Source: a phage. Taken from it: a stretch of 64,000 nucleotides of DNA. The DNA lies in the sequence record PQ327946.1. One strand, given 5' to 3'. This document shows, piece by piece, positions 23,654 through 56,017 of the stretch (its first letter is position 1; every line of letters begins with the position of its first letter). The notes beneath the pieces were generated by a model, which saw nothing but the letters and a program-made list of their open reading frames with translations, had not been told where the DNA came from and did not search any database. The translations under genes and the position numbers were made by a program.

Positions 23654-24175
23654 TTAGTAACCATTATCCTGGCGTTCAAAGTTGTGTTGGTTTTTCAGGT
23701 AATACAGTTTGAAGATTTCTTCAGCAGAAAGTCCTAGACCTTGGAACATATTTAGAACGAAATGCAGAATATCAATCATCTCGAATTTAATTTCAAGCTG
23801 GTCTTCAGGAGACAGTTCATCGATACGACGATTTCGATATTCAGCATGCTGGGCCTTCCACGGCTTCCATACAGAGCTAGCGGCCTTTTCACCATTGCTC
23901 ATACCACCAAGTGAAGTCAGCAGTTCACGGAATTCATCATCAATATAATCTTTCTGATTACGCAGCCAATCAACAACATCACCAGCAGTAGCCAATTCAT
24001 CAGGATGTTTGTTATGTTCAGGCTTGTCATTTGCCAGACGAACCTGTAAAGATTTCTGCATATCAAGCATTACCTGCAGAGGGTCTTTATCTTCGTGAAT
24101 CAGAGCATTAAAATAAGCTTCTTCTGCTTTATCAACACCAGAAATAAGTTGTGAGCATTCGTTAAAGTGCGCCAT
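23654..24175 (-). CDS. 56: dCTP pyrophosphatase gp56 (MazG-like)
   Basis: Start set at MAHFNECSQL to match the T4 gp56 N-terminus; MazG-like core ..ELATAGDVVDW.. Confidence 0.75.
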   Translation of the reverse strand: MAHFNECSQLISGVDKAEEAYFNALIHEDKDPLQVMLDMQKSLQVRLANDKPEHNKHPDELATAGDVVDWLRNQKDYIDDEFRELLTSLGGMSNGEKAASSVWKPWKAQHAEYRNRRIDELSPEDQLEIKFEMIDILHFVLNMFQGLGLSAEEIFKLYYLKNQHNFERQDNGY

Positions 24176-24265
24176 TATTTTTCCTTTCAATTCAGTATAA
24201 GAGAAGTTAATTCTAACATTAATTTTATAAAGCGTAATAAATAATAAGGTAACTAAGGAGATATT

Positions 24266-26207: not shown

Positions 26208-26867
26208 TTAACCTCGATTCATAAATGCATTAAATATTTGGTCATCAACAGAAATTTCTAATTCGACTTCAATTGTTTCAGCCTTTTCTTCAGGCGGTAA
26301 TTCGTATCCACACACTACAATTTTTTCATCGATATCAAAATATACAGAAGCAATACGATTAATGTTACTTTCAGTTAAGTCTAAATCAACATCAACATCT
26401 TTTTGACCTACACTTAAAGGATAACTAATACGGGTTATTTTATTATCTTTAACAAAGAGTCCACCAACATACTCTGTACTACGTTTGAAGTTTACACGTT
26501 TCCGAATTGAAAGATACGATACATCTTTACCGTGAGCTCGGCTCATAGGACATAATGAATAGCTAGAATAAGAGATGTCAAATCCTACACCTTCAATATG
26601 AGCCAACGCGTCGTGATTAAACCAATTATAATCATATGCCAAATCCATTATATTGTAATATGTGAAAGGCACCGGATTAACATCATACGTTGTACCTTTA
26701 AAATCTGCCCAGGCAACGATTTCGTTATCTTTAACAATTACAAAAATTACACCAATATGGTATCCGTTATTATTTTCATTCGGCGTTATATTATAACATT
26801 GTGCATTAGGAAATTTACCATATTTAAATGGCGCGTTTTTGTGCATGTAATAAATCATATTATTCAC
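26208..26867 (-). CDS. Hypothetical protein (219 aa)
   Basis: ORF. Confidence 0.5.
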   Translation of the reverse strand: MNNMIYYMHKNAPFKYGKFPNAQCYNITPNENNNGYHIGVIFVIVKDNEIVAWADFKGTTYDVNPVPFTYYNIMDLAYDYNWFNHDALAHIEGVGFDISYSSYSLCPMSRAHGKDVSYLSIRKRVNFKRSTEYVGGLFVKDNKITRISYPLSVGQKDVDVDLDLTESNINRIASVYFDIDEKIVVCGYELPPEEKAETIEVELEISVDDQIFNAFMNRG

Positions 26868-32252: not shown

Positions 32253-32801
32253 TTAACGAGCCCATTTGATAATTTCTGTAATCAAATTATTACGTTCGCT
32301 TGCATTAAATCCTATAACTTTGTTAGCACCATCATGATTAAGTAATTGATACGTTTGGATTTCGTTATGAATTGCAAACTCTTCAAAATATGAAATGACT
32401 GTATTAAAACCGAATGAAGACAAAGTAATAAGGTCGTCTTCAAAACTTTCAGTCATTTCGTTACGTGTTAAAATAATTGTGAACACATCATGGTTTTGGC
32501 AAAGACGAACATAATCCTGTTCATAAACGTCAAGAACCGAGTCCGCATCTTGTCGAATACGTCCATAAACCCAGTTACTAATATATCCACGGTCTAACAG
32601 ATAAATCTTAGTAGGGTCTAAATAATTCAACATCGTTTCGAAACAGCCAACTTCATTTCGAGACTTAACATCGAAACGTCCATCAACTGTTCGTTTAAGG
32701 AAATCAATCTTTACATATCTTTCACTAATTTCCATTATGTCATTAATGAAAGTTGTTTTACCAGCATTATCCGGGCCATCTACTAAAATAATTTTAGCCA
32801 T
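32253..32801 (-). CDS. P-loop nucleoside/nucleotide kinase-like protein
   Basis: 182 aa; Walker A GPDNAGKTT and LLDRGYISNWVYG (dNK/thymidylate-kinase-like DR motif); occupies the locus where T4 has beta-gt. Confidence 0.45.
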   Translation of the reverse strand: MAKIILVDGPDNAGKTTFINDIMEISERYVKIDFLKRTVDGRFDVKSRNEVGCFETMLNYLDPTKIYLLDRGYISNWVYGRIRQDADSVLDVYEQDYVRLCQNHDVFTIILTRNEMTESFEDDLITLSSFGFNTVISYFEEFAIHNEIQTYQLLNHDGANKVIGFNASERNNLITEIIKWAR

Positions 32802-32802
32802 T

Positions 32803-33702
32803 TTATTCCTCGATTACGACATCTTCATATTTAGGTATATTATACGGTGAAGAAATTAAAGCGTTAAAGTAGATGAACTCACCAAGACCTGGATGGAATA
32901 CTTCTTCAGGATTTTCGAAATATTGAATCTTCGGACGTCCTTTAAGAATTTGATAGTACTCAGTTTTAGTTGGATTAAAAATTCGAATCAGCGCTTCTTC
33001 AGGATACTTATTTCTGTCGAAACTATTATTTGGATCAGTTATATAAAGCGGTTGACCTAATTGAATTGCGCATTCAACCACTTGTTCAAAACGATAGCAC
33101 GGGTCACTAATTCGAAATGGATGAAAAATACCATCTAGATGAATAGGAGCCAAATCACCTACAAGACGCTGCATGATGGAAGGACGTATAACTTTCTGCG
33201 TTACGATAATCTTATTACCATCCGCACCAGCGTTAACCAGCACTTCCTTTTGACGTTCATTCAACACAGTAGTTTGAAGTGAACGATTAACCGACAACAT
33301 GTCGGTTTTTAAGAATTCGTCAATATAAAAACGCGGTTTATTAGGGTCTGCGGTGATATTGAAATTGAATTCTACATCAAAAGCACCATCATATCCAGTG
33401 ATATCTGTTATTAGAAAATCACAATCATAATAAGCAATTAATGAATCAACCACAAATTCATTTTCAGACCAGAAATATTTACGAGTGTTATACGCGTTAT
33501 CTTTATACCATAATGGAACAAACTTAAATTCTGGGAAAAGACGTTCACATTCTTTAATATCAGATGCATTACGTGGATATGTAATCACATCACCTGGATT
33601 AGCACGGTGCAAATGAAGTTGGAAGTTGCCATCCTTAAGGATAGCATACTGTCCAGTTTCATAAGACCGCATACTCAAGATAGGTACGCGGAAAATAGCC
33701 AT
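32803..33702 (-). CDS. Hypothetical protein (299 aa), candidate DNA-modification enzyme
   Basis: No recognisable motif; directly coupled (ATGA overlap) to gene 42 where T4 has beta-glucosyltransferase. Confidence 0.45.
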   Translation of the reverse strand: MAIFRVPILSMRSYETGQYAILKDGNFQLHLHRANPGDVITYPRNASDIKECERLFPEFKFVPLWYKDNAYNTRKYFWSENEFVVDSLIAYYDCDFLITDITGYDGAFDVEFNFNITADPNKPRFYIDEFLKTDMLSVNRSLQTTVLNERQKEVLVNAGADGNKIIVTQKVIRPSIMQRLVGDLAPIHLDGIFHPFRISDPCYRFEQVVECAIQLGQPLYITDPNNSFDRNKYPEEALIRIFNPTKTEYYQILKGRPKIQYFENPEEVFHPGLGEFIYFNALISSPYNIPKYEDVVIEE

Positions 33703-34418
33703 TAGTCAAGGAATCCTTTAACATAATCAAAATCACGTTCAAACACATGGGCACTTACCATGGTATGAGTATAATCACCAACTTCTACACCACATTCGTT
33801 AGCGATATAATGAAGTAATTTTCCTTGGAGATAAAAATCCAACTGCATAACAACAGCACAGTTCTGAGAACGCATATGGCAGTGGGTATAAAGCTTACCA
33901 TCACGAATATAATAAGTCACCGAGTCAGTACATGGATATTCAAGCGTTTCGTCCGAATCAAGCAAAGCCTGATCAGAACTTTCTAGAATTTGGAACACAA
34001 CTCTTCGGGAGTTAGGCTTCTCTTTAAGTTCTTTTAGAAGAGCTGGTAATTGGGCCGCAATGCGAGGACCATAGAAAGTGTTGAAGTTCGCCGGCAAAAC
34101 ATCTGATTTTGGTTTAGAAATAAATTTAGCGACATTAGGATATGCCTTAAACGCTTCTTCTGCGTCAGTACCACCAGAAATCATAAACTTCCAGAAGTCT
34201 TCGGCATATTCATAAGAGATGCGGTTAATACGTGGGTCGGTCATTTTGAATGATGATGGAGTGTCAACAACTACTGTCATAGACCCAATTTCATTACAAC
34301 GTCCAATACGAGAATCAGTTACGAATTCCGGGTTTTCTAAAATTTCACGATTGACTGCTTTAAATGCGGTTTGAAAATCTGCGGCTTTGATATATTTCAT
34401 TGTGTTATGTTTTCCCAT
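33702..34418 (-). CDS. 42: dCMP hydroxymethylase gp42 / thymidylate-synthase-family enzyme
   Basis: 238 aa; TS-family catalytic EYPCTD and SAHVFERDF motifs; position between uvsX and 43 as T4 gene 42. Confidence 0.6.
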   Translation of the reverse strand: MGKHNTMKYIKAADFQTAFKAVNREILENPEFVTDSRIGRCNEIGSMTVVVDTPSSFKMTDPRINRISYEYAEDFWKFMISGGTDAEEAFKAYPNVAKFISKPKSDVLPANFNTFYGPRIAAQLPALLKELKEKPNSRRVVFQILESSDQALLDSDETLEYPCTDSVTYYIRDGKLYTHCHMRSQNCAVVMQLDFYLQGKLLHYIANECGVEVGDYTHTMVSAHVFERDFDYVKGFLD

Positions 34419-34696
34419 GTTTACCTCAATACAATTTATTATATACTCAATTCGTAAAGCTTATTTGAATTTCTTGACAATGTTGATATAACGTAAAGCT
34501 TCAGCATCGATACTTCCAAGAACACTATGAAGAAATGCATCAGCGTAGTATTCCAATTAAACAGGTTCTTTAATCACTTTAGCCGCTTTAGTTTCAAACA
34601 GGCCCATCAGGGCCTTTTTAAGAATTTGTTCGATGCTGTTAATTTTCATAGTCAAAATCTCTTCGTTAAGTTGGTGGTTAAAAGTTTTTCTAGAAA

Positions 34697-35857
34697 TCAT
34701 TCTGGGTACCTCAAAGCGTCGTCAGAGTTAGTTATATCAATAATAGATATAGAATTTTCTGATAACCCATTTTTAGATAACTGACGTTTATAATATCTTT
34801 CACAATATGTACACGTCGTCCCGCAGATTTCATTAGCACAATCGAAATCTGGATGTTTGAACCACCTTTTTTCTAAAAAGCCATCTAACAAAGAGGTTTC
34901 AATATTTACCGTATGTGAAAACTCGGTCTCATTTTCAAGAGTGAAAATGGTCTCTAAAGGCTTCCACAATTCCAACAAATTACCTTCAAATTTTTCGGAA
35001 GCATAAGCTTCAAGAACTTTCAAAATGTAGTCTGTGCTACCTGTACGTCCTGAAACTTTGAATTGAGTGATACCAATATCATTATAAAGTTTCAAATCTT
35101 GAGGACGAACAAAACGAGTTCTCAACCAGTTAAATGGGTCTGTATCACGAGCTTTAATACAGTGCTGCATTGGATACCCATTTAAGGATTTGGCATCATC
35201 TACTGTAACATCGGTGCTATGGAAAATATAGCAAGAGTCACGATAACTACAATGTGTTGTATACCCTTTACCAGCATTAGAACAGAACTCATTTACAAGA
35301 ACTTCAAATATTATATTGTTCTTATTACAAAACTCTGCTGCACGCTTCAGGAAAGAAACTGAACGGTTCTTATGAATTCCGCAGCAGACCTTTTTGATAT
35401 TATATTGGTCATGCAAGTATTTGATTTGAGTTACAGCATCGACATGTAGAATTGTTGAAACTTCAATCTCAATGTCTTTATTGACTTCACGAACAATTTC
35501 CATAACAACAGGGTTAGCGATAGTAATACGCCATACGCCTATTGACCAAAGATACTGAACATAATCCTGAATAGCTTTCTTCTTCCACTCAACTAGTTCT
35601 CTTTTTGAACCAGGATTTATCGTGTTGAGTGTATAGTTAAAGCAAATACCTAATTCGTTACAACGTTTAACGTAGTCTTCTAACATCTTTTTGTCAACGT
35701 CAGGAAGCCTAAAATCAGGTCTGGCTGCTACAAAAGCCATTTCTCTTGTAGAGCCATATACTTCGTTTATCAAGCTATTAGGATAGGTTTTATTGAGCTC
35801 TACGATTTTATCAAGAAGAGCTAAATCAAAATTCGTTCCGATTTTAAAAGTATTCAT
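34697..35857 (-). CDS. U32-peptidase-like Cys-rich protein
   Basis: 386 aa; FNYTLNT and EVLVNEFCSNAGKGYTTHCSY resemble the U32 signature; C-terminal cluster CANEICGTTCTYC; family assignment tentative. Confidence 0.35.
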   Translation of the reverse strand: MNTFKIGTNFDLALLDKIVELNKTYPNSLINEVYGSTREMAFVAARPDFRLPDVDKKMLEDYVKRCNELGICFNYTLNTINPGSKRELVEWKKKAIQDYVQYLWSIGVWRITIANPVVMEIVREVNKDIEIEVSTILHVDAVTQIKYLHDQYNIKKVCCGIHKNRSVSFLKRAAEFCNKNNIIFEVLVNEFCSNAGKGYTTHCSYRDSCYIFHSTDVTVDDAKSLNGYPMQHCIKARDTDPFNWLRTRFVRPQDLKLYNDIGITQFKVSGRTGSTDYILKVLEAYASEKFEGNLLELWKPLETIFTLENETEFSHTVNIETSLLDGFLEKRWFKHPDFDCANEICGTTCTYCERYYKRQLSKNGLSENSISIIDITNSDDALRYPE

Positions 35858-35914: not shown

Positions 35915-36301
35915 TTATAGATTCGGTTTATATGATTTAAATGTTTCGAATTCGCCTTTATTCATAAGAGCTTTGAATTCGTCAGGACGCATAGCTTTGT
36001 CGTCGATAATCCAATCATATACTGGTTTATGTGTTAGCAAATTATGGTACTTCAATCCAATGTTTGCCAAGTTCTGAATCAGACTTGGGAGAATGTCAAT
36101 TGCTATACGACCAGGACCGACTGACTTCATACCGCGAGCAGTGTAAAGCGTTATGGTATGCCCTGCATCATACAGGGCATTAATGGCAGATACCATTTCG
36201 ACGTCTGGTTTGAAGTTCACGTAATCACGATTGTTATTCCACTCTGTTATACAATCATCGACATCAAAACAAAGATTAAGCATGTTTTCTACACGGTGCA
36301 T
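35915..36301 (-). CDS. HAD-superfamily phosphatase (KdsC-like)
   Basis: Motif I LCFDVDDCIT near the N-terminus; start set at the ATG overlapping the upstream stop (TAATG). Confidence 0.5.
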   Translation of the reverse strand: MHRVENMLNLCFDVDDCITEWNNNRDYVNFKPDVEMVSAINALYDAGHTITLYTARGMKSVGPGRIAIDILPSLIQNLANIGLKYHNLLTHKPVYDWIIDDKAMRPDEFKALMNKGEFETFKSYKPNL

Positions 36302-37986
36302 TAGATTCGTTCCCATTGATGAGTGATATCGCCACCGATTGGACGATAAGAAACACCAGTTTCTTTATCAGTTAGTACCCATTTACCAGGATTTTTTGTA
36401 ATCAGAGTAGCCGTTACAGGTTCTGCTACATCATAACTAATAGTGCCGTCCTGAAGTACACGGCCCATGTTACGTAATTGCTTAGTCAGAAGTTCCATAC
36501 CTTTATAATATGCGGCTACCGCTTTAAGTGGATTATTCTTGAAATAACCACCTAATGCAATCCAGATAATTGCTACAGCCAAATGATGATACTCATTAAA
36601 CGAACTCATCTTTCCATATTTGTAAACTAATGGATTGATGTTAATAGTCACATTACAAGTTGTTTCATCAATAGTAAACTGACCCCAGGTCGGATTAGCG
36701 TTGAATTCATCATAACCTGAAACAGCATAAAGCACTTTAGCTTCATCATACAATTTTGGCCCATAAATCTTGGTTTCACCAAAATATCCACGAGGGTCGA
36801 TAAACTTGACTTCACCATTATCAGTAATCATAGTATTACTGAAGTTCGGGTCACCATGAATAACAGAGTACTGTCCCTGAGAACGGTTATGATAACGAAT
36901 AAGGTGTTCTAAAGCTTGTTTCAGCATTGGCTTCAGACGCCCAATCTTAGTGTAGTTCACATGTGTGATTTTACCAAATGAATCAATCAATGGTTGAATA
37001 CTTTCACAACGATCAATAACTTTCGTATAGAATTCTTTAGTGAAATCACGACGAACAGTTTCAGGACTTACAAAATAAGTGTCTGTGCTGAATTTCAGTG
37101 CGTCTAAAATTGCATCAACAATTTGTGGACGAGCAAGACTCGATTTGGATTTAATATATTCAAATGCTGGCTTACCTTTAATGCGTTCCATTTCAAAGTT
37201 ATTTTCATTAACAGAAACTAACTGAGGAACTGAATCTGATTTCACTTTAAGATACCATGAAATCTCATCTTTCTGAAGAGCTCGTCCCTGTTCGGTTAAT
37301 GCGAATTTAGTTACAGTTTCTTCACCAATTTCAACTGCATTAAAACTACGATTAAGTTCACGAACTTCATGAGCTTTTTCAAGTTTAGGCATATCACCTA
37401 AATCAATTAGATTCATAAGCTCTGATTTATTGAATGCGCTGCCGTAAAGGAATTCTACGAAATCACGTCCTTTGCAGTATTCATGAATTTCCTCATCAGT
37501 AGAACCCATATAGAATTCCCAGTCTTTGAACTGATAAATTCCTACAACATTACCACCTGTTGAACCTACGTTAGTGATATTTTCGCCGTCGAAATTATAT
37601 CGACATTCGTCACCCTTAACATAGATTGCGTTAACATTCCAAGACCATGAACCAAAATCAGGAATAATATCACACCAGTTAACAATTACATTATGACCGT
37701 CTAAATCTTTGTGTAATTTAGCAAGAGCATAAGCAGAACCGTACGCTTCATCAACTGTACGAATAGTCACATTGAACCCTTCTTGCTCACAATAAACTCG
37801 AACAGTTTCAGCAAATTTTGAATGAACTACTACAATAATTTCATCTGCGCCAAGGTCAGAATAAATTGTATACAAATTGCTCAGAATAGTGTCTTGTTTA
37901 TAGTTAACAAGCACCTTAGGAATATGATGCGTTATTGGATACAAACGAGTTGCCAGTCCAGCACCAAGAATAACAGCTTTTTTCAT
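36301..37986 (-). CDS. Bifunctional sugar-1-phosphate nucleotidyltransferase / sugar kinase
   Basis: 561 aa; N-terminal AVILGAGLATRL nucleotidyltransferase glycine loop; C-terminal VIHGDPNFSNTMI..FIDPRG of APH/choline-kinase-type kinases. Confidence 0.6.
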   Translation of the reverse strand: MKKAVILGAGLATRLYPITHHIPKVLVNYKQDTILSNLYTIYSDLGADEIIVVVHSKFAETVRVYCEQEGFNVTIRTVDEAYGSAYALAKLHKDLDGHNVIVNWCDIIPDFGSWSWNVNAIYVKGDECRYNFDGENITNVGSTGGNVVGIYQFKDWEFYMGSTDEEIHEYCKGRDFVEFLYGSAFNKSELMNLIDLGDMPKLEKAHEVRELNRSFNAVEIGEETVTKFALTEQGRALQKDEISWYLKVKSDSVPQLVSVNENNFEMERIKGKPAFEYIKSKSSLARPQIVDAILDALKFSTDTYFVSPETVRRDFTKEFYTKVIDRCESIQPLIDSFGKITHVNYTKIGRLKPMLKQALEHLIRYHNRSQGQYSVIHGDPNFSNTMITDNGEVKFIDPRGYFGETKIYGPKLYDEAKVLYAVSGYDEFNANPTWGQFTIDETTCNVTININPLVYKYGKMSSFNEYHHLAVAIIWIALGGYFKNNPLKAVAAYYKGMELLTKQLRNMGRVLQDGTISYDVAEPVTATLITKNPGKWVLTDKETGVSYRPIGGDITHQWERI

Positions 37987-38027: not shown

Positions 38028-38171
38028 CTAGTTAAAGCATTCATACTTTGCTTGTAGTCCAATCATAATCCATCCGATTATAAGAGTCGGAATCATTACT
38101 GGAGCCGTTAAGCTCCAGTAGATAGTCATGACAAGCATCAATAGTAAAAGTCCTATTGTTATTGCTTTCAT
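38028..38171 (-). CDS. Small membrane protein (about 47 aa)
   Basis: Hand-translated MKAITIGLLLLMLVMTIYWSL..; ATGA overlap with the SIS gene stop; coordinates approximate. Confidence 0.3.
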   Translation of the reverse strand: MKAITIGLLLLMLVMTIYWSLTAPVMIPTLIIGWIMIGLQAKYECFN

Positions 38172-38803
38172 TGTTCGCCTCGTAACATGGCACCTAGTGC
38201 ACCGCCAGGGTGGAACTTAAGGAAGTCATTAGAGGTAAATCCACGTTCAGACGAAAGGTTGATAGCAAACGTATCGATAAGCGCTAACAACAATGTAGTG
38301 GACATAGTCGGAGCCAGAGAATTCTCATCAACCTCTACTGCGATGCCTGTACAGAACGTATAATCAAAAAGAGCTTCGTATTCTTGTGGAATGTCTGGGT
38401 TACAATGCAACAGAATCTGTTTGACGTTCGGACGAATCATTTTAAGATGCTTAGCCACGCCTATCATTTCTTCAGTTTTACCAGAACGACTAATATGAAT
38501 CAACACATCATTAGGCGCAATGAATCCTGCATCACCGTGAGAATAATGCCCGGTGTTCAAGTACATACTCGGGATACCGAGTGAAGCAAATGTCTCAGAA
38601 GCTTTAGTTGCGATATTAGCGTTCTTACCAACACCTGTAATAATTACACGACTTTCATAATTACTAAGTCCTGGGCGTCGAAGAGTTTCTAGAATAGCAT
38701 TATAACGAGCAGGGTTTTGACTAATTACTTTGGCCATAGCGGCCAAAGAAGAAGCTTGTTTTATGATTGCGTCAATAGCGATAGTAATAGGAGTAGTTTT
38801 CAT
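38168..38803 (-). CDS. SIS-domain sugar-phosphate isomerase (arabinose-5-phosphate isomerase KdsD/KpsF-like, no CBS domains)
   Basis: 211 aa; ITGVGKNANIATKASETFASLGIPSMYLNTGHYSHGDAG matches the KdsD/GmhA SIS core pattern. Confidence 0.6.
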   Translation of the reverse strand: MKTTPITIAIDAIIKQASSLAAMAKVISQNPARYNAILETLRRPGLSNYESRVIITGVGKNANIATKASETFASLGIPSMYLNTGHYSHGDAGFIAPNDVLIHISRSGKTEEMIGVAKHLKMIRPNVKQILLHCNPDIPQEYEALFDYTFCTGIAVEVDENSLAPTMSTTLLLALIDTFAINLSSERGFTSNDFLKFHPGGALGAMLRGEQ

Positions 38804-53732: not shown

Positions 53733-54203
53733 TTAATCATGTTTCCACACCCCATCGGTATTTGACCAAAGTCGCTGATTATCTGATCCTCGCCACATCT
53801 TTTTAGTCGGAAGATTTTTCTCATACTTCCCATCAATAATAACATCAACATATTTAAGCATTTCTAGTTGTTTAATATCTTCAAACTTATATCCTGTCCA
53901 CAACCAAATGCTTTTATTGGGATAAAGATTTTTTACTGTTTGAGCAATGCGATGAATAACATCTCGGTTATCAGGATAGAGAGGATCTCCTCCGGTTATA
54001 GTTAATCCTTCTATATAATCATTATTCAAACATTCAATCAATTGTTCTAGTGTTTCACCAGTGAATGGAATACCATTTCTAGCGTTCCATGTTGATTTAT
54101 TATAACACCCTTCGCATTTATGCAAACAACCTGTAACGAAAAGAACGACCCTGCAACCAGGGCCATTCACAAAATCGCAAGGATAAAATCTATCATAATT
54201 CAT
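53733..54203 (-). CDS. nrdG: Anaerobic ribonucleotide reductase activating protein NrdG (radical SAM)
   Basis: 156 aa; CxxxCxxC in CLHKCEGCYN; immediately downstream of nrdD. Confidence 0.85.
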   Translation of the reverse strand: MNYDRFYPCDFVNGPGCRVVLFVTGCLHKCEGCYNKSTWNARNGIPFTGETLEQLIECLNNDYIEGLTITGGDPLYPDNRDVIHRIAQTVKNLYPNKSIWLWTGYKFEDIKQLEMLKYVDVIIDGKYEKNLPTKKMWRGSDNQRLWSNTDGVWKHD

Positions 54204-56017
54204 TGGTGTTTAACCCTATGCATGATTTCTTTATTTTTACCGAGATTAAATCCGCGTTCGTTCGGATTTCCCAAATAACCACATGTTCTTCTTATGGTGT
54301 TCATCTTTTTAGGATCACTTTCTCCACAAACTGAACAAACAAATCCGTTTTCAGTAGGAGTCATTTCATGAGTACTTCCACATGTAAAACATTTATCTAC
54401 TGGCATATTAACACCAAAATAATCTAAATGTTGTGCAGCATAATCCCAGACAGCCTCAAGACCTTTTAAGTTATTTTTCATATCTGGAAGTTCAACATAA
54501 GAAATGTGACCGCCTGTTGCAATGAAATGATATGGGGCTTCGCGAGAAATCTTTTCAAATGGAGTAATATTTTCTTCTACTGAAACGTGGAAACTGTTAG
54601 TGTACCAGCCTTTATCGGTAACATCTTTTACACTTCCATATTTCTCAGTATCAAGTTTACAGAAGCGATAGCACAGGTTTTCAGCAGGAGTAGAATACAG
54701 GCTAAAAGCAAAACCGGTTCTTTCAGTCCACTGCTTAAGACGAGCATTCATTTTAGTTAAAATTTCCTGTCCAATATCACGTCCGACAAGAATATTCAAT
54801 TCGTGAATACCAATGTATCCTAGGGACACTGAACTTCTGCCGTTTTTAAATAACTCAATTATATCGTCATCAGGTTTAAGACGAACCCCGAATGCACCTT
54901 CTTGGTAAAGAATAGGAGCAACAGTAGCTTTAACTCCTTTTAAGGAACTAATTCTGCACATCAATGCTTCAAAACATAAATCCATTCGTTCATTGAATAA
55001 TTCAACAAATTTCTGTTCATTGAACTGTGTTCCAATATAAGAATCTAACGCAATACGAGGAAGATTCAGTGTTACAACACCAAGATTATTACGTCCATCA
55101 AGAATTTCATTACCAGTCGAATCTTTCCATACGCTCAAGAAACTACGACAGCCCATTGGAGAAACAGGAACAGATGAACCAGTGATAGCTTTATTATTCT
55201 TAACTGAAATAATATCAGGATACATTCTTTTGCTTGCACACTCTAGAGCAAGCTGCTTAATATCATAATTCGGATCGTCTTTATAAAGATTAACACCTTC
55301 TTCAACGAACATAACAAGTTTAGGGAAAATAGGAGTTATCCCATCGCGACCAAGACCTTTAATACGATTTTTCAGAATTGCTTTCTGAATCATTCGTTCA
55401 GTCCAGTCAGTTCCAGTACCAAATGTAATTGTCACAAAAGGCGTTTGTCCGTTTGAACTAAAGAGAGTATTTACTTCATATTCATAAGCTTGGAATGCAT
55501 CGTATACGTCTTTTTCTGTTTTAGATTGGGCATAATTCAGCGCATCAGCGATTTGCCATTTTTCTGCATCTTCAATATGTTTTGCGTAGGTGCGTTTAAC
55601 ATAAGGAGAAAGGACTTTATCTACATTCGCAAATGTAGTTCCACCGTATTGATGGGAAGCAACCTGCGCAGTAATTTGTGCCATAATTGCAGTAGCAACA
55701 CCAATCGATTTAGGCGTTTCAATTTGAGCATTGCCTAATTTAAATCCATTCTCAAGCATCCCCTTTAAATCGACTAAACAGCAATTAGTAAATGGAAGAG
55801 CAGGAGAATAATCAATATCATGCATGTGGATAATTCCACTTTCGTGTGCTTTCATAATAAAAGACGGGACCATATTTTTGGCAATGTGCTTAGACACAAT
55901 ACCAGCCATAAGGTCCCGTTGAGTTGGAAAAACACGAGAATCTTTATTAGCATTCTCGTTCAAAAGATCTTTATTAGTTTTATGAATTAATCCTTCAATT
56001 TCTTTTTCAATTTTCAT
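54200..56017 (-). CDS. nrdD: Anaerobic ribonucleoside-triphosphate reductase NrdD, intron-free
   Basis: 605 aa; C-terminal glycyl-radical motif RRTCGYLG and zinc-ribbon Cys; single continuous ORF. Confidence 0.9.
   Translation of the reverse strand: MKIEKEIEGLIHKTNKDLLNENANKDSRVFPTQRDLMAGIVSKHIAKNMVPSFIMKAHESGIIHMHDIDYSPALPFTNCCLVDLKGMLENGFKLGNAQIETPKSIGVATAIMAQITAQVASHQYGGTTFANVDKVLSPYVKRTYAKHIEDAEKWQIADALNYAQSKTEKDVYDAFQAYEYEVNTLFSSNGQTPFVTITFGTGTDWTERMIQKAILKNRIKGLGRDGITPIFPKLVMFVEEGVNLYKDDPNYDIKQLALECASKRMYPDIISVKNNKAITGSSVPVSPMGCRSFLSVWKDSTGNEILDGRNNLGVVTLNLPRIALDSYIGTQFNEQKFVELFNERMDLCFEALMCRISSLKGVKATVAPILYQEGAFGVRLKPDDDIIELFKNGRSSVSLGYIGIHELNILVGRDIGQEILTKMNARLKQWTERTGFAFSLYSTPAENLCYRFCKLDTEKYGSVKDVTDKGWYTNSFHVSVEENITPFEKISREAPYHFIATGGHISYVELPDMKNNLKGLEAVWDYAAQHLDYFGVNMPVDKCFTCGSTHEMTPTENGFVCSVCGESDPKKMNTIRRTCGYLGNPNERGFNLGKNKEIMHRVKHQ

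Follow-up and report, generated by a model that had tools for sequence, protein, structure and literature searches.

What does a Cys-rich protein of the U32 family do among the DNA-modification genes of a T-even phage? This question is raised by a stretch of 64,000 nucleotides from sequence record PQ327946.1 (hereafter, the window), which belongs to an RB69-type T-even phage (Mosigvirus) and also holds the genes for gp43 DNA polymerase, UvsX, and gp41 helicase as neighbours. An earlier note on this DNA had pointed out a U32-like signature and a C-terminal Cys cluster in the product of the open reading frame (ORF) 34697–35857, and had suggested a redox or hydroxylation step on the sugar or the base of the modified DNA. 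Here, we establish the family, the fold, the conserved Glu and Cys residues, the purifying selection, the gene neighbourhoods, and the distribution of this protein, the homolog of RB69 gp50 (RB69p050). On balance, we favour the view that it is an O2-independent, prephenate-dependent pyrimidine C5 hydroxylase for DNA hypermodification, which would back up the O2-dependent enzyme gp48 in anoxia.

The ORF matched the Pfam family Peptidase_U32 (PF01136) with E = 6.3e-11 and 42.4 bits, against a gathering score of 22.4. This was the sole Pfam match in the protein, and it spans residues 94–286, corresponding to profile positions 2–192 of 233. The protein also matched PHROG 5757 (E = 2e-266). When its family profile was compared by hhalign with an alignment of the four Escherichia coli U32 paralogs (TrhP, UbiU, RlhA, and UbiV), the probability was 97.1% (E = 1.2e-10, 271 columns); against the single TrhP sequence it was just 12%. 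The sole NCBIfam match was to the UbiU model NF047963 (residues 57–157), and at 19.4 bits against a cut-off of 440 it is too weak to identify the protein as UbiU. No PDB chain sequence matched the protein at E ≤ 1 (phmmer). An AlphaFold2 model built from 52 homologs had a mean predicted local distance difference test score (pLDDT) of 92.2, a predicted template modelling score (pTM) of 0.90, and an alternating strand–helix pattern. Its top PDB match was the U32 structure 5d88 (Foldseek E = 5.3e-8, template modelling score 0.69 normalised to the target), and the remaining matches were TIM barrels. These results confirm that the ORF belongs to the U32 superfamily, as the earlier note had tentatively proposed, with a predicted TIM-barrel fold like that of 5d88. 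The protein carries PF01136 but no DUF3656 and ends ∼35 residues past the Cys cluster; therefore, it is not an ortholog of RlhA.

The family is large and under constraint. In an exhaustive profile search, the number of representative clusters (50% identity) was 459 with a threshold of E ≤ 1e-30 and rose to 1,123 with E ≤ 1e-10; the majority were 350–390 aa long and aligned over the full length. The U32 gene of the window has 95–99% DNA identity with 153 phage records and differs from that of RB69 by 26 synonymous and three non-synonymous substitutions, giving a ratio of non-synonymous to synonymous rates (dN/dS) of 0.03. The dN/dS was 0.01–0.03 within Mosigvirus and 0.05–0.07 between genera. 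We therefore consider the gene to be functional.

The two quoted motifs, EVLVNEFCSNAGKGYTTHCSY and CANEICGTTCTYC, are present and start at residues 185 and 340, respectively. Nine Cys residues were invariant in 121 homologs with identities down to ∼49%: five in the core (C158, C192, C203, C209, and C233) and four C-terminal (C340, C345, C349, and C352). Among 126 distant representatives, C192 was kept in 125, C233, K267, and R271 in all 126, and the four C-terminal Cys in 77–88%. In MAFFT and hhalign alike, E185 matched the essential Glu of TrhP (E162) and RlhA (E161), and C192, C203, C209, and C233 lay on or beside the positions of the [4Fe-4S] ligands of UbiU, which are C169, C176, C193, and C232 (PMC6747719). 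The essential residues of the U32 motif are E161, C169, and C176 in RlhA (PMC5727448) and E162, C170, and C177 in TrhP (PMC6599085); the motif Cys of these two proteins were aligned with C192 and C209 by MAFFT, and with C203 by hhalign, in which C192 was six columns off. In MAFFT, C233 paired with the UbiU ligand C232. The link that the earlier note had drawn to the Fe–S-dependent U32 hydroxylases of RNA and quinones is upheld. In ∼20% of the distant family representatives, C203 and C209 were jointly replaced by Gly and His, which suggests a subgroup with a different set of metal ligands. In the C-terminal cluster, the sequence CTYCE aligned with CRPCE of RlhA (C611-RP-C614-E; MAFFT), and C580 and C611 of RlhA are essential (PMC5727448). 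The last three Cys of the phage protein lie in residues 345–352 (CGTTCTYC, window 34802–34825, minus strand), C-terminal to the U32 barrel, and are spaced as CX3CX-aromatic-C (here CX3CX-Tyr-C); the likeness of this spacing to radical-SAM cluster motifs may be coincidence.

The chemistry of RB69-type DNA is published. The DNA of RB69 was originally described as containing arabinosyl-hydroxymethylcytosine (PMC6024577); according to a 2026 paper it contains mono- and di-arabinosylated 5-hydroxycytosine (5hoC), and canonical cytosine is fully replaced (PMC13326640). In that paper, 5-hydroxy-dCMP is made by the ThyA homolog gp48, which binds flavin mononucleotide (FMN) and takes its oxygen from O2, as determined by 18O2 labelling; UDP-arabinofuranose is made by a SIS isomerase, a nucleotidyltransferase-kinase, and a phosphatase; a dCTPase role is listed for RB69p028; and Acinetobacter phage DLP3 is reported to make tri-arabinosyl-5hoC (PMC13326640). 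RB69p050 appears there only in Table 1, predicted as a “sugar or heterocycle reductase” with 5d88 as its structural match, and the discussion cites pyrimidine hydroxylation by RlhA and TrhP/TrhO and draws no tie to gp50 (PMC13326640). U32 is not mentioned in the 2018 RB69 paper or in the Thanatos paper, and the GenBank record of phage HY126 carries no Afh gene names. Because RB69-type DNA is arabinosylated 5hoC, base hydroxylation lies within the known T-even chemistry and is credited to the O2- and FMN-dependent gp48 (PMC13326640), contrary to the earlier note, which had placed the step outside that chemistry.

The placement of the gene in a DNA-modification and sugar-activation cluster, also claimed in that note, was borne out. 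The U32 gene is flanked upstream by the genes for the SIS isomerase, the nucleotidyltransferase-kinase, and the HAD phosphatase, and downstream by those for the ThyA homolog and a glycosyltransferase. In RB69-like genomes it sits between the phosphatase gene and the gene for the ThyA-type 5-hydroxy-dCMP synthase, and the gene order is common to RB69p045–p055, HY126, and 15 Straboviridae loci in IMG/VR. The U32 gene is an accessory member of the arabinosyl-5-hydroxycytosine cluster, being absent from Acinetobacter phage AB-Navy71 and Dhakavirus VR5.

We propose that the protein is an Fe–S enzyme and that it would add a hydroxyl group at C5 of a pyrimidine deoxynucleotide, dCMP in the RB69-type phages, with no need for O2. 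Prephenate would donate the oxygen, as inferred for RlhA (rRNA C2501 to 5-hydroxycytidine), TrhP (tRNA U34 to 5-hydroxyuridine), and UbiU/V, and the product, 5-hydroxy-dCMP, would join the gp48 route of phosphorylation, incorporation into DNA, and arabinosylation. One step would then be served by two hydroxylases, gp48 in air and the U32 protein in anoxia such as that of the gut, in parallel with the aerobic and anaerobic ribonucleotide reductases of the phage. In most related genera, a phage chorismate mutase encoded next to U32 would boost the supply of prephenate, and in the Mosigviruses, including the phage of this window, prephenate would come from the host enzymes PheA/TyrA. We infer the Fe–S binding, the use of prephenate, the independence from O2, the substrate, and the level of action from sequence and gene context. 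The oxygen logic goes beyond the earlier note: a U32 enzyme would have an O2-dependent hydroxylase as its partner, on the established pattern of TrhO/TrhP and UbiIHF/UbiUV. The phage replaces all of its cytosine and encodes a probable dCTPase, which by removing dCTP would make it dependent on modified dC nucleotides. Its only demonstrated hydroxylase needs O2, yet it carries NrdD and NrdG, which equip it for dNTP synthesis in anoxia; without an O2-independent hydroxylase it would presumably have no usable cytosine nucleotide in the gut.

The known systems resemble the proposed one to different degrees. RlhA (YdcP) contains the U32 motif and carries out the reaction proposed for the phage protein, C5 hydroxylation of cytosine (C2501 of 23S rRNA); it has an essential Glu and two essential Cys in that motif as well as essential conserved Cys in a C-terminal region, and it requires Fe–S biogenesis and prephenate (PMC5727448). 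However, RlhA has 653 aa, contains DUF3656, and acts on a 50S precursor, whereas the phage protein has 386 aa and no RNA-binding extension, its Cys spacing differs, with CX4CX3CX2C directly after the barrel, and the sequence similarity is remote. TrhP (YegQ) is a prephenate-dependent, O2-independent U32 enzyme paired with the unrelated, O2-dependent TrhO for the same C5 hydroxylation (PMC6599085), the arrangement that we propose for gp50 and gp48. TrhP differs in its tRNA substrate and its C-terminal extensions, and TrhO belongs to the rhodanese family, whereas gp48 is a flavoenzyme with the ThyA fold. In UbiU–UbiV, also U32 proteins, [4Fe-4S] clusters have been demonstrated on conserved Cys, and the pair is the anaerobic counterpart of the flavin monooxygenases UbiI/H/F (PMC6747719, PMC10990095); it is a heterodimer that needs UbiT and acts on a lipid, whereas the phage protein apparently stands alone and has an extra C-terminal cluster of four Cys. 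The 5-hydroxy-dCMP synthase itself (RB69 gp48, DLP3 gp80, and the HY126 homolog) makes the product proposed for the U32 protein, and is encoded in the same cluster and belongs to the same arabinosylation pathway (PMC13326640); its ThyA-type fold, FMN, and use of an oxygen atom from O2 set it apart, and its role is shown by experiment, whereas that of U32 is proposed. Mk0906 of Methanopyrus kandleri (5d88) has the TIM-barrel core in common with the phage model but has 247 residues, is 12% identical, and lacks the region of the C-terminal Cys cluster. The T4-type NrdAB and NrdDG provide a precedent for O2-dependent and O2-independent enzymes serving one DNA-precursor step; with another reaction and other families, this is an analogy of strategy only.

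Chorismate mutase produces prephenate, and 3-deoxy-D-arabino-heptulosonate-7-phosphate (DAHP) synthase opens the pathway to it. Genes for both recur beside U32. Enterobacter phage Entb_45 has a gene for a 79-aa chorismate mutase of type II (Pfam CM_2, E = 2.4e-10) between its U32 and ThyA-homolog genes. Across 56 phage records, covering 12 or more host genera, such a CM_2 gene separates the U32 gene from the ThyA-homolog gene or lies next to them; besides Enterobacter, the hosts include Klebsiella, Serratia, Yersinia, Edwardsiella, Erwinia, Pectobacterium, Proteus, Providencia, Morganella, Kosakonia, and Shewanella. The phage enzyme keeps six of the eight active-site residues of E. coli chorismate mutase (R11, R28, K39, E52, S84, and Q88). 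In Shewanella phage Thanatos the cluster is rearranged, and the U32 and chorismate mutase genes are still adjacent, with overlapping codons. In Thanatos-1 (L016, 1350–2740), TH1_065 is the U32 gene and TH1_066 the chorismate mutase gene (CM_2, E = 2e-8); the published Thanatos work modelled TH1_057 to TH1_065 without naming TH1_065 as U32, and TH1_066 lies just outside the modelled set.

A scan of IMG/VR yielded 52 loci in 30 U32 lineages at 85% identity, of which 29 were not T-even. In eight of these 29 distant viral lineages, a chorismate mutase, a DAHP synthase–chorismate mutase fusion, or a DAHP synthase is encoded directly beside U32 (≤ 2 kb): a stand-alone CM_2 in L051, L054, and relatives, the fusion in L045, L047, L048, L049, and L059, and DAHP synthase alone in L008 and L034. 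A prephenate-supply gene also lies beside U32 in 4 of 11 loci from cellular assemblies. The phage-encoded fusions directly beside U32 (L045:8399-9430, L048:7290-8354, L049:8323-9384, L059:11076-12194, and L075:6922-7956) have DAHP synthase at the N-terminus and chorismate mutase at the C-terminus, the reverse of the NCBIfam bifunctional model, in which chorismate mutase is N-terminal. Prephenate is needed by RlhA (PMC5727448) and TrhP (PMC6599085) and is the proven oxygen donor of UbiU/V, as shown by 18O labelling (PMC10990095). As the donor would be consumed once per cytosine, the demand for prephenate would be large, and the phage genes for chorismate mutase and DAHP synthase would make sense.

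The other genes near U32 in the 29 distant lineages point to nucleotides and glycosylation. A GT1-like glycosyltransferase was found in 13 of the lineages, the nucleotidyltransferase-kinase in 12, a SIS protein in nine, and dCMP deaminase in six; NT5C, deoxynucleoside kinase, thymidylate kinase, nucleoside deoxyribosyltransferase, and uracil-DNA glycosylase (UDG) also occurred. Many of these neighbours are enzymes of mononucleotide metabolism, and a nucleotide substrate is therefore favoured. No ThyA-type hydroxylase was encoded within ±10 kb of U32 in any of the 29 lineages, the sole ThyA match (L036) being an ordinary thymidylate synthase; U32 thus appears to occupy the position at which a hydroxylase would be needed. 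In contigs of huge phages encoding Pol III-alpha (up to 466 kb; L005:7447-9086, L009, and L010:7504-9083), U32 directly follows a ComEB-like dCMP deaminase gene, near genes for thymidylate kinase and UDG-family proteins, a hint that in these phages the enzyme may use dUMP instead of dCMP. A compact island in L006 (8001–15428) and in L073, a metagenome-assembled genome of Bacillota, encodes U32, NT5C, a nicotinamide mononucleotide transporter, deoxynucleoside kinase, an AlaX-like protein, a radical SAM/SPASM protein, a second, very divergent U32 with a weak TrhP-like match, and a nucleoside 2-deoxyribosyltransferase. The island resembles a pathway for base modification or salvage at the level of nucleosides, with two U32 enzymes.

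These neighbourhoods also bear on the level at which the enzyme would act. A prephenate-dependent hydroxylase could act on a polymer, either on cytosine in phage DNA after replication or, like TrhP and RlhA, on host or phage tRNA or rRNA. The characterised U32 enzymes of nucleic acids all act on RNA polymers (PMC5727448, PMC6599085), the phage protein and RlhA have a C-terminal Cys feature in common, and the association with prephenate genes would suit this explanation equally well. However, the protein is a single barrel of 386 aa with a short Cys tail, with no counterpart of the extended C-terminal parts of TrhP (453 aa) and RlhA (653 aa, DUF3656), and its conserved neighbours (dCMP deaminase, NT5C, deoxynucleoside kinase, thymidylate kinase, and the ThyA homolog) are mononucleotide enzymes. 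In addition, the dCTPase of T-even relatives removes dCTP, so that unmodified cytosine should not reach the DNA. We therefore regard action on a polymer as unlikely.

The distribution of the gene was compared with that of the ThyA homolog. U32 occurs in 222 phage records, in which every host listed belongs to the Enterobacterales or to Shewanella. For the ThyA homolog the number of records is 374; among them are phages of Acinetobacter (57), Rhizobium (∼20), Agrobacterium, and Pseudomonas (one), and none of the phages of these four genera has U32. Acinetobacter, Rhizobium, and Agrobacterium are aerobes, and their phages carry the cluster apart from U32. Among the phage records compared, U32 was found in no phage of a strict aerobe. 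In 185,579 species genomes, the subfamily was found at only 11 loci, mostly in obligate anaerobes (Erysipelotrichales, Oscillospiraceae, Gastranaerophilaceae, Romboutsia, Tannerella, Phocaeicola, and a Woesearchaeote). Phage DLP3 makes its tri-arabinosyl-5hoC without a U32 gene, and E. coli Dhakavirus VR5 has the rest of the cluster without it. In Acinetobacter phage AB-Navy71, which has no U32, the phosphatase gene abuts the ThyA-homolog gene; the U32–chorismate mutase pair is therefore missing from exactly that junction. The U32 gene is dispensable for the aerobic pathway.

The same absences count against a role in the sugar branch, in which the protein would be a “sugar or heterocycle reductase,” as predicted for RB69p050 in Table 1 of Lee et al. 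(PMC13326640), or would carry out some other redox step in making or editing the nucleoside diphosphate-arabinose donor. Its gene does lie between those for the phosphatase, nucleotidyltransferase-kinase, and SIS protein and that for the glycosyltransferase, and SIS, nucleotidyltransferase-kinase, and U32 genes are kept together in several distant lineages, to which L008 adds an RmlD-like reductase. However, the proposed three-enzyme route from ribulose-5-phosphate to UDP-arabinofuranose needs no further redox step, AfhE and AfhF are reported as sufficient in HY126, and DLP3, other Acinetobacter phages, and VR5 have the cluster without U32. A sugar role would also leave unexplained the recurrent chorismate mutase and DAHP synthase neighbours, as well as the U32 genes beside dCMP deaminase, NT5C, and deoxynucleoside kinase in lineages without sugar genes. 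We know of no U32 enzyme that acts on a sugar, and we consider this role improbable. Of the two targets named in the earlier note, the base is thus supported and the sugar is not; its observation is confirmed and its interpretation is partly supported.

We give a similarly low probability to a U32 hydroxylase for some other small molecule that is loosely tied to 5hoC, acting on dUMP to give 5-hydroxy-dUMP, adding a second ring hydroxyl, or modifying a cofactor or quinone. TrhP hydroxylates uracil, the substrate of a U32 enzyme is not readable from its sequence, and the dCMP deaminase gene directly upstream of U32 in several huge-phage loci would feed dUMP. In T-even relatives, however, the gene is embedded in a cytosine-modification cluster, and no other hydroxylated base has been reported in RB69 DNA; for the distant phages, this explanation is a variant of the proposed pyrimidine hydroxylase rather than a rival to it. 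A protease (“peptidase” or “collagenase-like PrtC” in most GenBank records) or an inactive relic is very improbable: the former has in its favour database names and the historical U32 collagenase reports cited in PMC5727448, whereas the strong purifying selection, the nine invariant Cys, the context of nucleotide and sugar metabolism with prephenate-supply genes, and the U32 members with genetic evidence, which are hydroxylation factors (PMC5727448, PMC6599085, PMC10990095), all speak against it.

Several points weigh against the proposed O2-independent pyrimidine hydroxylase. MAFFT and hhalign differ in how they pair the Cys residues with the Fe–S ligands, and we therefore assign no specific ligand set. 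The core Cys are spaced as CX10CX5CX23C, which is non-canonical compared with the four-Cys [4Fe-4S] spacing of the family, CX6CX15CX3/4C (PMC6747719). No U32 hydroxylase has been reconstituted in vitro, and the chemistry taken as the model is itself inferred (PMC10990095). No chorismate mutase gene was found in this window or in other Mosigviruses, and a nearby prephenate-supply gene is missing from 21 of the 29 distant lineages. The scan covered ±8–10 kb around each distant U32 gene, and the genomes in question could encode a ThyA-type hydroxylase beyond this range; some of the distant clusters contain sugar genes, so that context alone would also fit a sugar-related role. U32 is missing from VR5 and some Enterobacter phages, whose hosts are facultative anaerobes; the rule that phages of such hosts always carry U32 was therefore rejected, and host lifestyle does not predict the presence of the gene. 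The host associations are phylogenetically clumped rather than independent events and are therefore suggestive rather than statistical. Finally, the accessible literature contained no paper linking U32 or chorismate mutase to phage hydroxycytosine; He et al. 2026 and Mahler et al. 2025 fall outside that scope and may assign or exclude a function.

Table 1. Features of the U32 gene, the arabinosyl-5-hydroxycytosine cluster, and related genes in the window.
Feature	Position	Strand	Basis and remarks
Stand-alone U32-family protein, RB69 gp50 / RB69p050 homolog	34697..35857	-	386 aa, ATG start
U32 core motif, residues 185-233 (E185, E190, C192, C203, C209, C233); putative [4Fe-4S] site and catalytic Glu	35159..35305	-	Alignments; invariance in 121 homologs
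C-terminal Cys cluster, residues 340-352, CX4CX3CX2C; possible second metal or Fe-S site	34802..34840	-	Invariant in 121 homologs
Thymidylate-kinase-like nucleotide kinase (RB69 gp45)	32253..32801	-	Pfam scan; PMC13326640
DNA arabinosyltransferase 1 (RB69 gp46:47), single intact 299-aa ORF	32803..33702	-	ORF; role from PMC13326640
ThyA homolog (RB69 gp48), 5-hydroxy-dCMP synthase, FMN- and O2-dependent	33702..34418	-	Pfam Thymidylat_synt E = 2.4e-15; RB69 gp48 function from PMC13326640
gp49 slot, homolog of 79-aa RB69p049, in-frame TAA at codon 48 (34557-34559)	34461..34700	-	Sequence comparison
Phosphatase, HAD-like per RB69 homolog (RB69 gp51 / AfhF-like), arabinofuranose-1,5-bisphosphate to arabinofuranose-1-phosphate	35915..36316	-	No Pfam match here; role from PMC13326640
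Bifunctional nucleotidyltransferase-kinase (RB69 gp52:53 / AfhE-like), single intact 561-aa ORF	36301..37986	-	Pfam NTP_transferase E = 2e-9 and weak kinase matches; PMC13326640
SIS-domain arabinose-5-phosphate isomerase (RB69 gp55)	38168..38803	-	Pfam SIS E = 1.7e-10; PMC13326640
Probable gp56-type dCTPase (RB69p028 equivalent)	23654..24190	-	Pfam dUTPase_2 E = 1.2e-6; equivalence inferred from position beside primase gene
NrdG, radical-SAM activase of NrdD, 156 aa	53733..54203	-	Pfam Fer4_12 E = 2.2e-48, Radical_SAM E = 5e-8
NrdD, anaerobic ribonucleoside-triphosphate reductase, 605 aa	54200..56017	-	Pfam NRDD E = 1.3e-171, Gly_radical E = 1.8e-25; motif RRTCGYLG

The remaining features of the locus are summarized in Table 1. 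The ThyA homolog of the window is 98.3–100% identical to Mosigvirus proteins, including that of HY126. The glycosyltransferase and nucleotidyltransferase-kinase genes are intact here, and each is split in the RB69 reference record (p046/p047 and p052/p053); Lee et al. attribute these splits to sequencing errors (PMC13326640), and the intact ORFs of the window agree with this view. A terminator-like hairpin (32267–32243) follows gp45, the last gene of the cluster, and a scan for promoters and terminators in the 32–39 kb region found 22 sites against 26.3 expected in shuffled sequence, i.e., no enrichment. The genes for NrdG and NrdD (53733–56017) lie ∼18 kb away from the modification cluster. 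The start of the gp49 slot overlaps the U32 stop codon. RB69 has CAA (Gln) at codon 48 and an intact 79-aa RB69p049, and the HY126 gene carries two 1-nt insertions, which cause two frameshifts; compared with RB69, the gp49 homolog of the window shows four non-synonymous and two synonymous differences and evolves much faster than the adjacent U32 gene. Its size and position, like those of the 79-aa chorismate mutase of Entb_45, suggested that this slot (a pair of 47-aa and 31-aa ORFs) could be a decayed chorismate mutase gene. This was ruled out by the lack of any Pfam match, by an E-value of 0.87 for the chorismate mutase profile, and by the coexistence of RB69p049 homologs with a genuine chorismate mutase in Yersinia phage TG1, Serratia phage 92A1, and Pectobacterium phages; gp49 belongs to a separate family of small genes. 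Elsewhere in the window, a 219-aa protein (26208–26867, minus strand) matched Pfam AdfA (anti-DarT factor A; E = 1.1e-118), an anti-defence gene with no tie to the U32 finding.

The wider proposal, on which our judgement is evenly balanced, is that viruses encode a pyrimidine hydroxylase of their own that is driven by prephenate and independent of O2, in many cases along with a chorismate mutase, a DAHP synthase, or a protein that fuses both. It would be the anaerobic twin of gp48 in T-even relatives, the sole enzyme providing a hydroxyl handle for glycosylated DNA in many uncultured large phages of anaerobes, and the first of the U32 hydroxylases to act on a soluble mononucleotide. If so, it would fill a gap in the arabinosyl-5-hydroxycytosine pathway, in which the published hydroxylase depends on O2, all cytosine is replaced, and dCTP is destroyed, in coliphages that dwell in the gut. 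Prephenate-dependent hydroxylation would be extended from RNA and quinones to DNA precursors and viruses, and viruses would encode shikimate-pathway enzymes that supply a stoichiometrically consumed oxygen donor; we estimate the demand at ∼6e4 cytosines for each genome, times the burst size. A stand-alone enzyme of 386 aa with a nucleotide substrate could be readily reconstituted in vitro and would make the U32 mechanism directly testable. If the proposal is true, the large family of 459 clusters would probably be a marker of DNA hypermodification based on hydroxypyrimidines in the phages of anaerobes. The modification of phage DNA, and with it the host range, may then hinge on oxygen and on the aromatic-amino-acid metabolism of the host, which would bear on phage therapy and the evasion of restriction.

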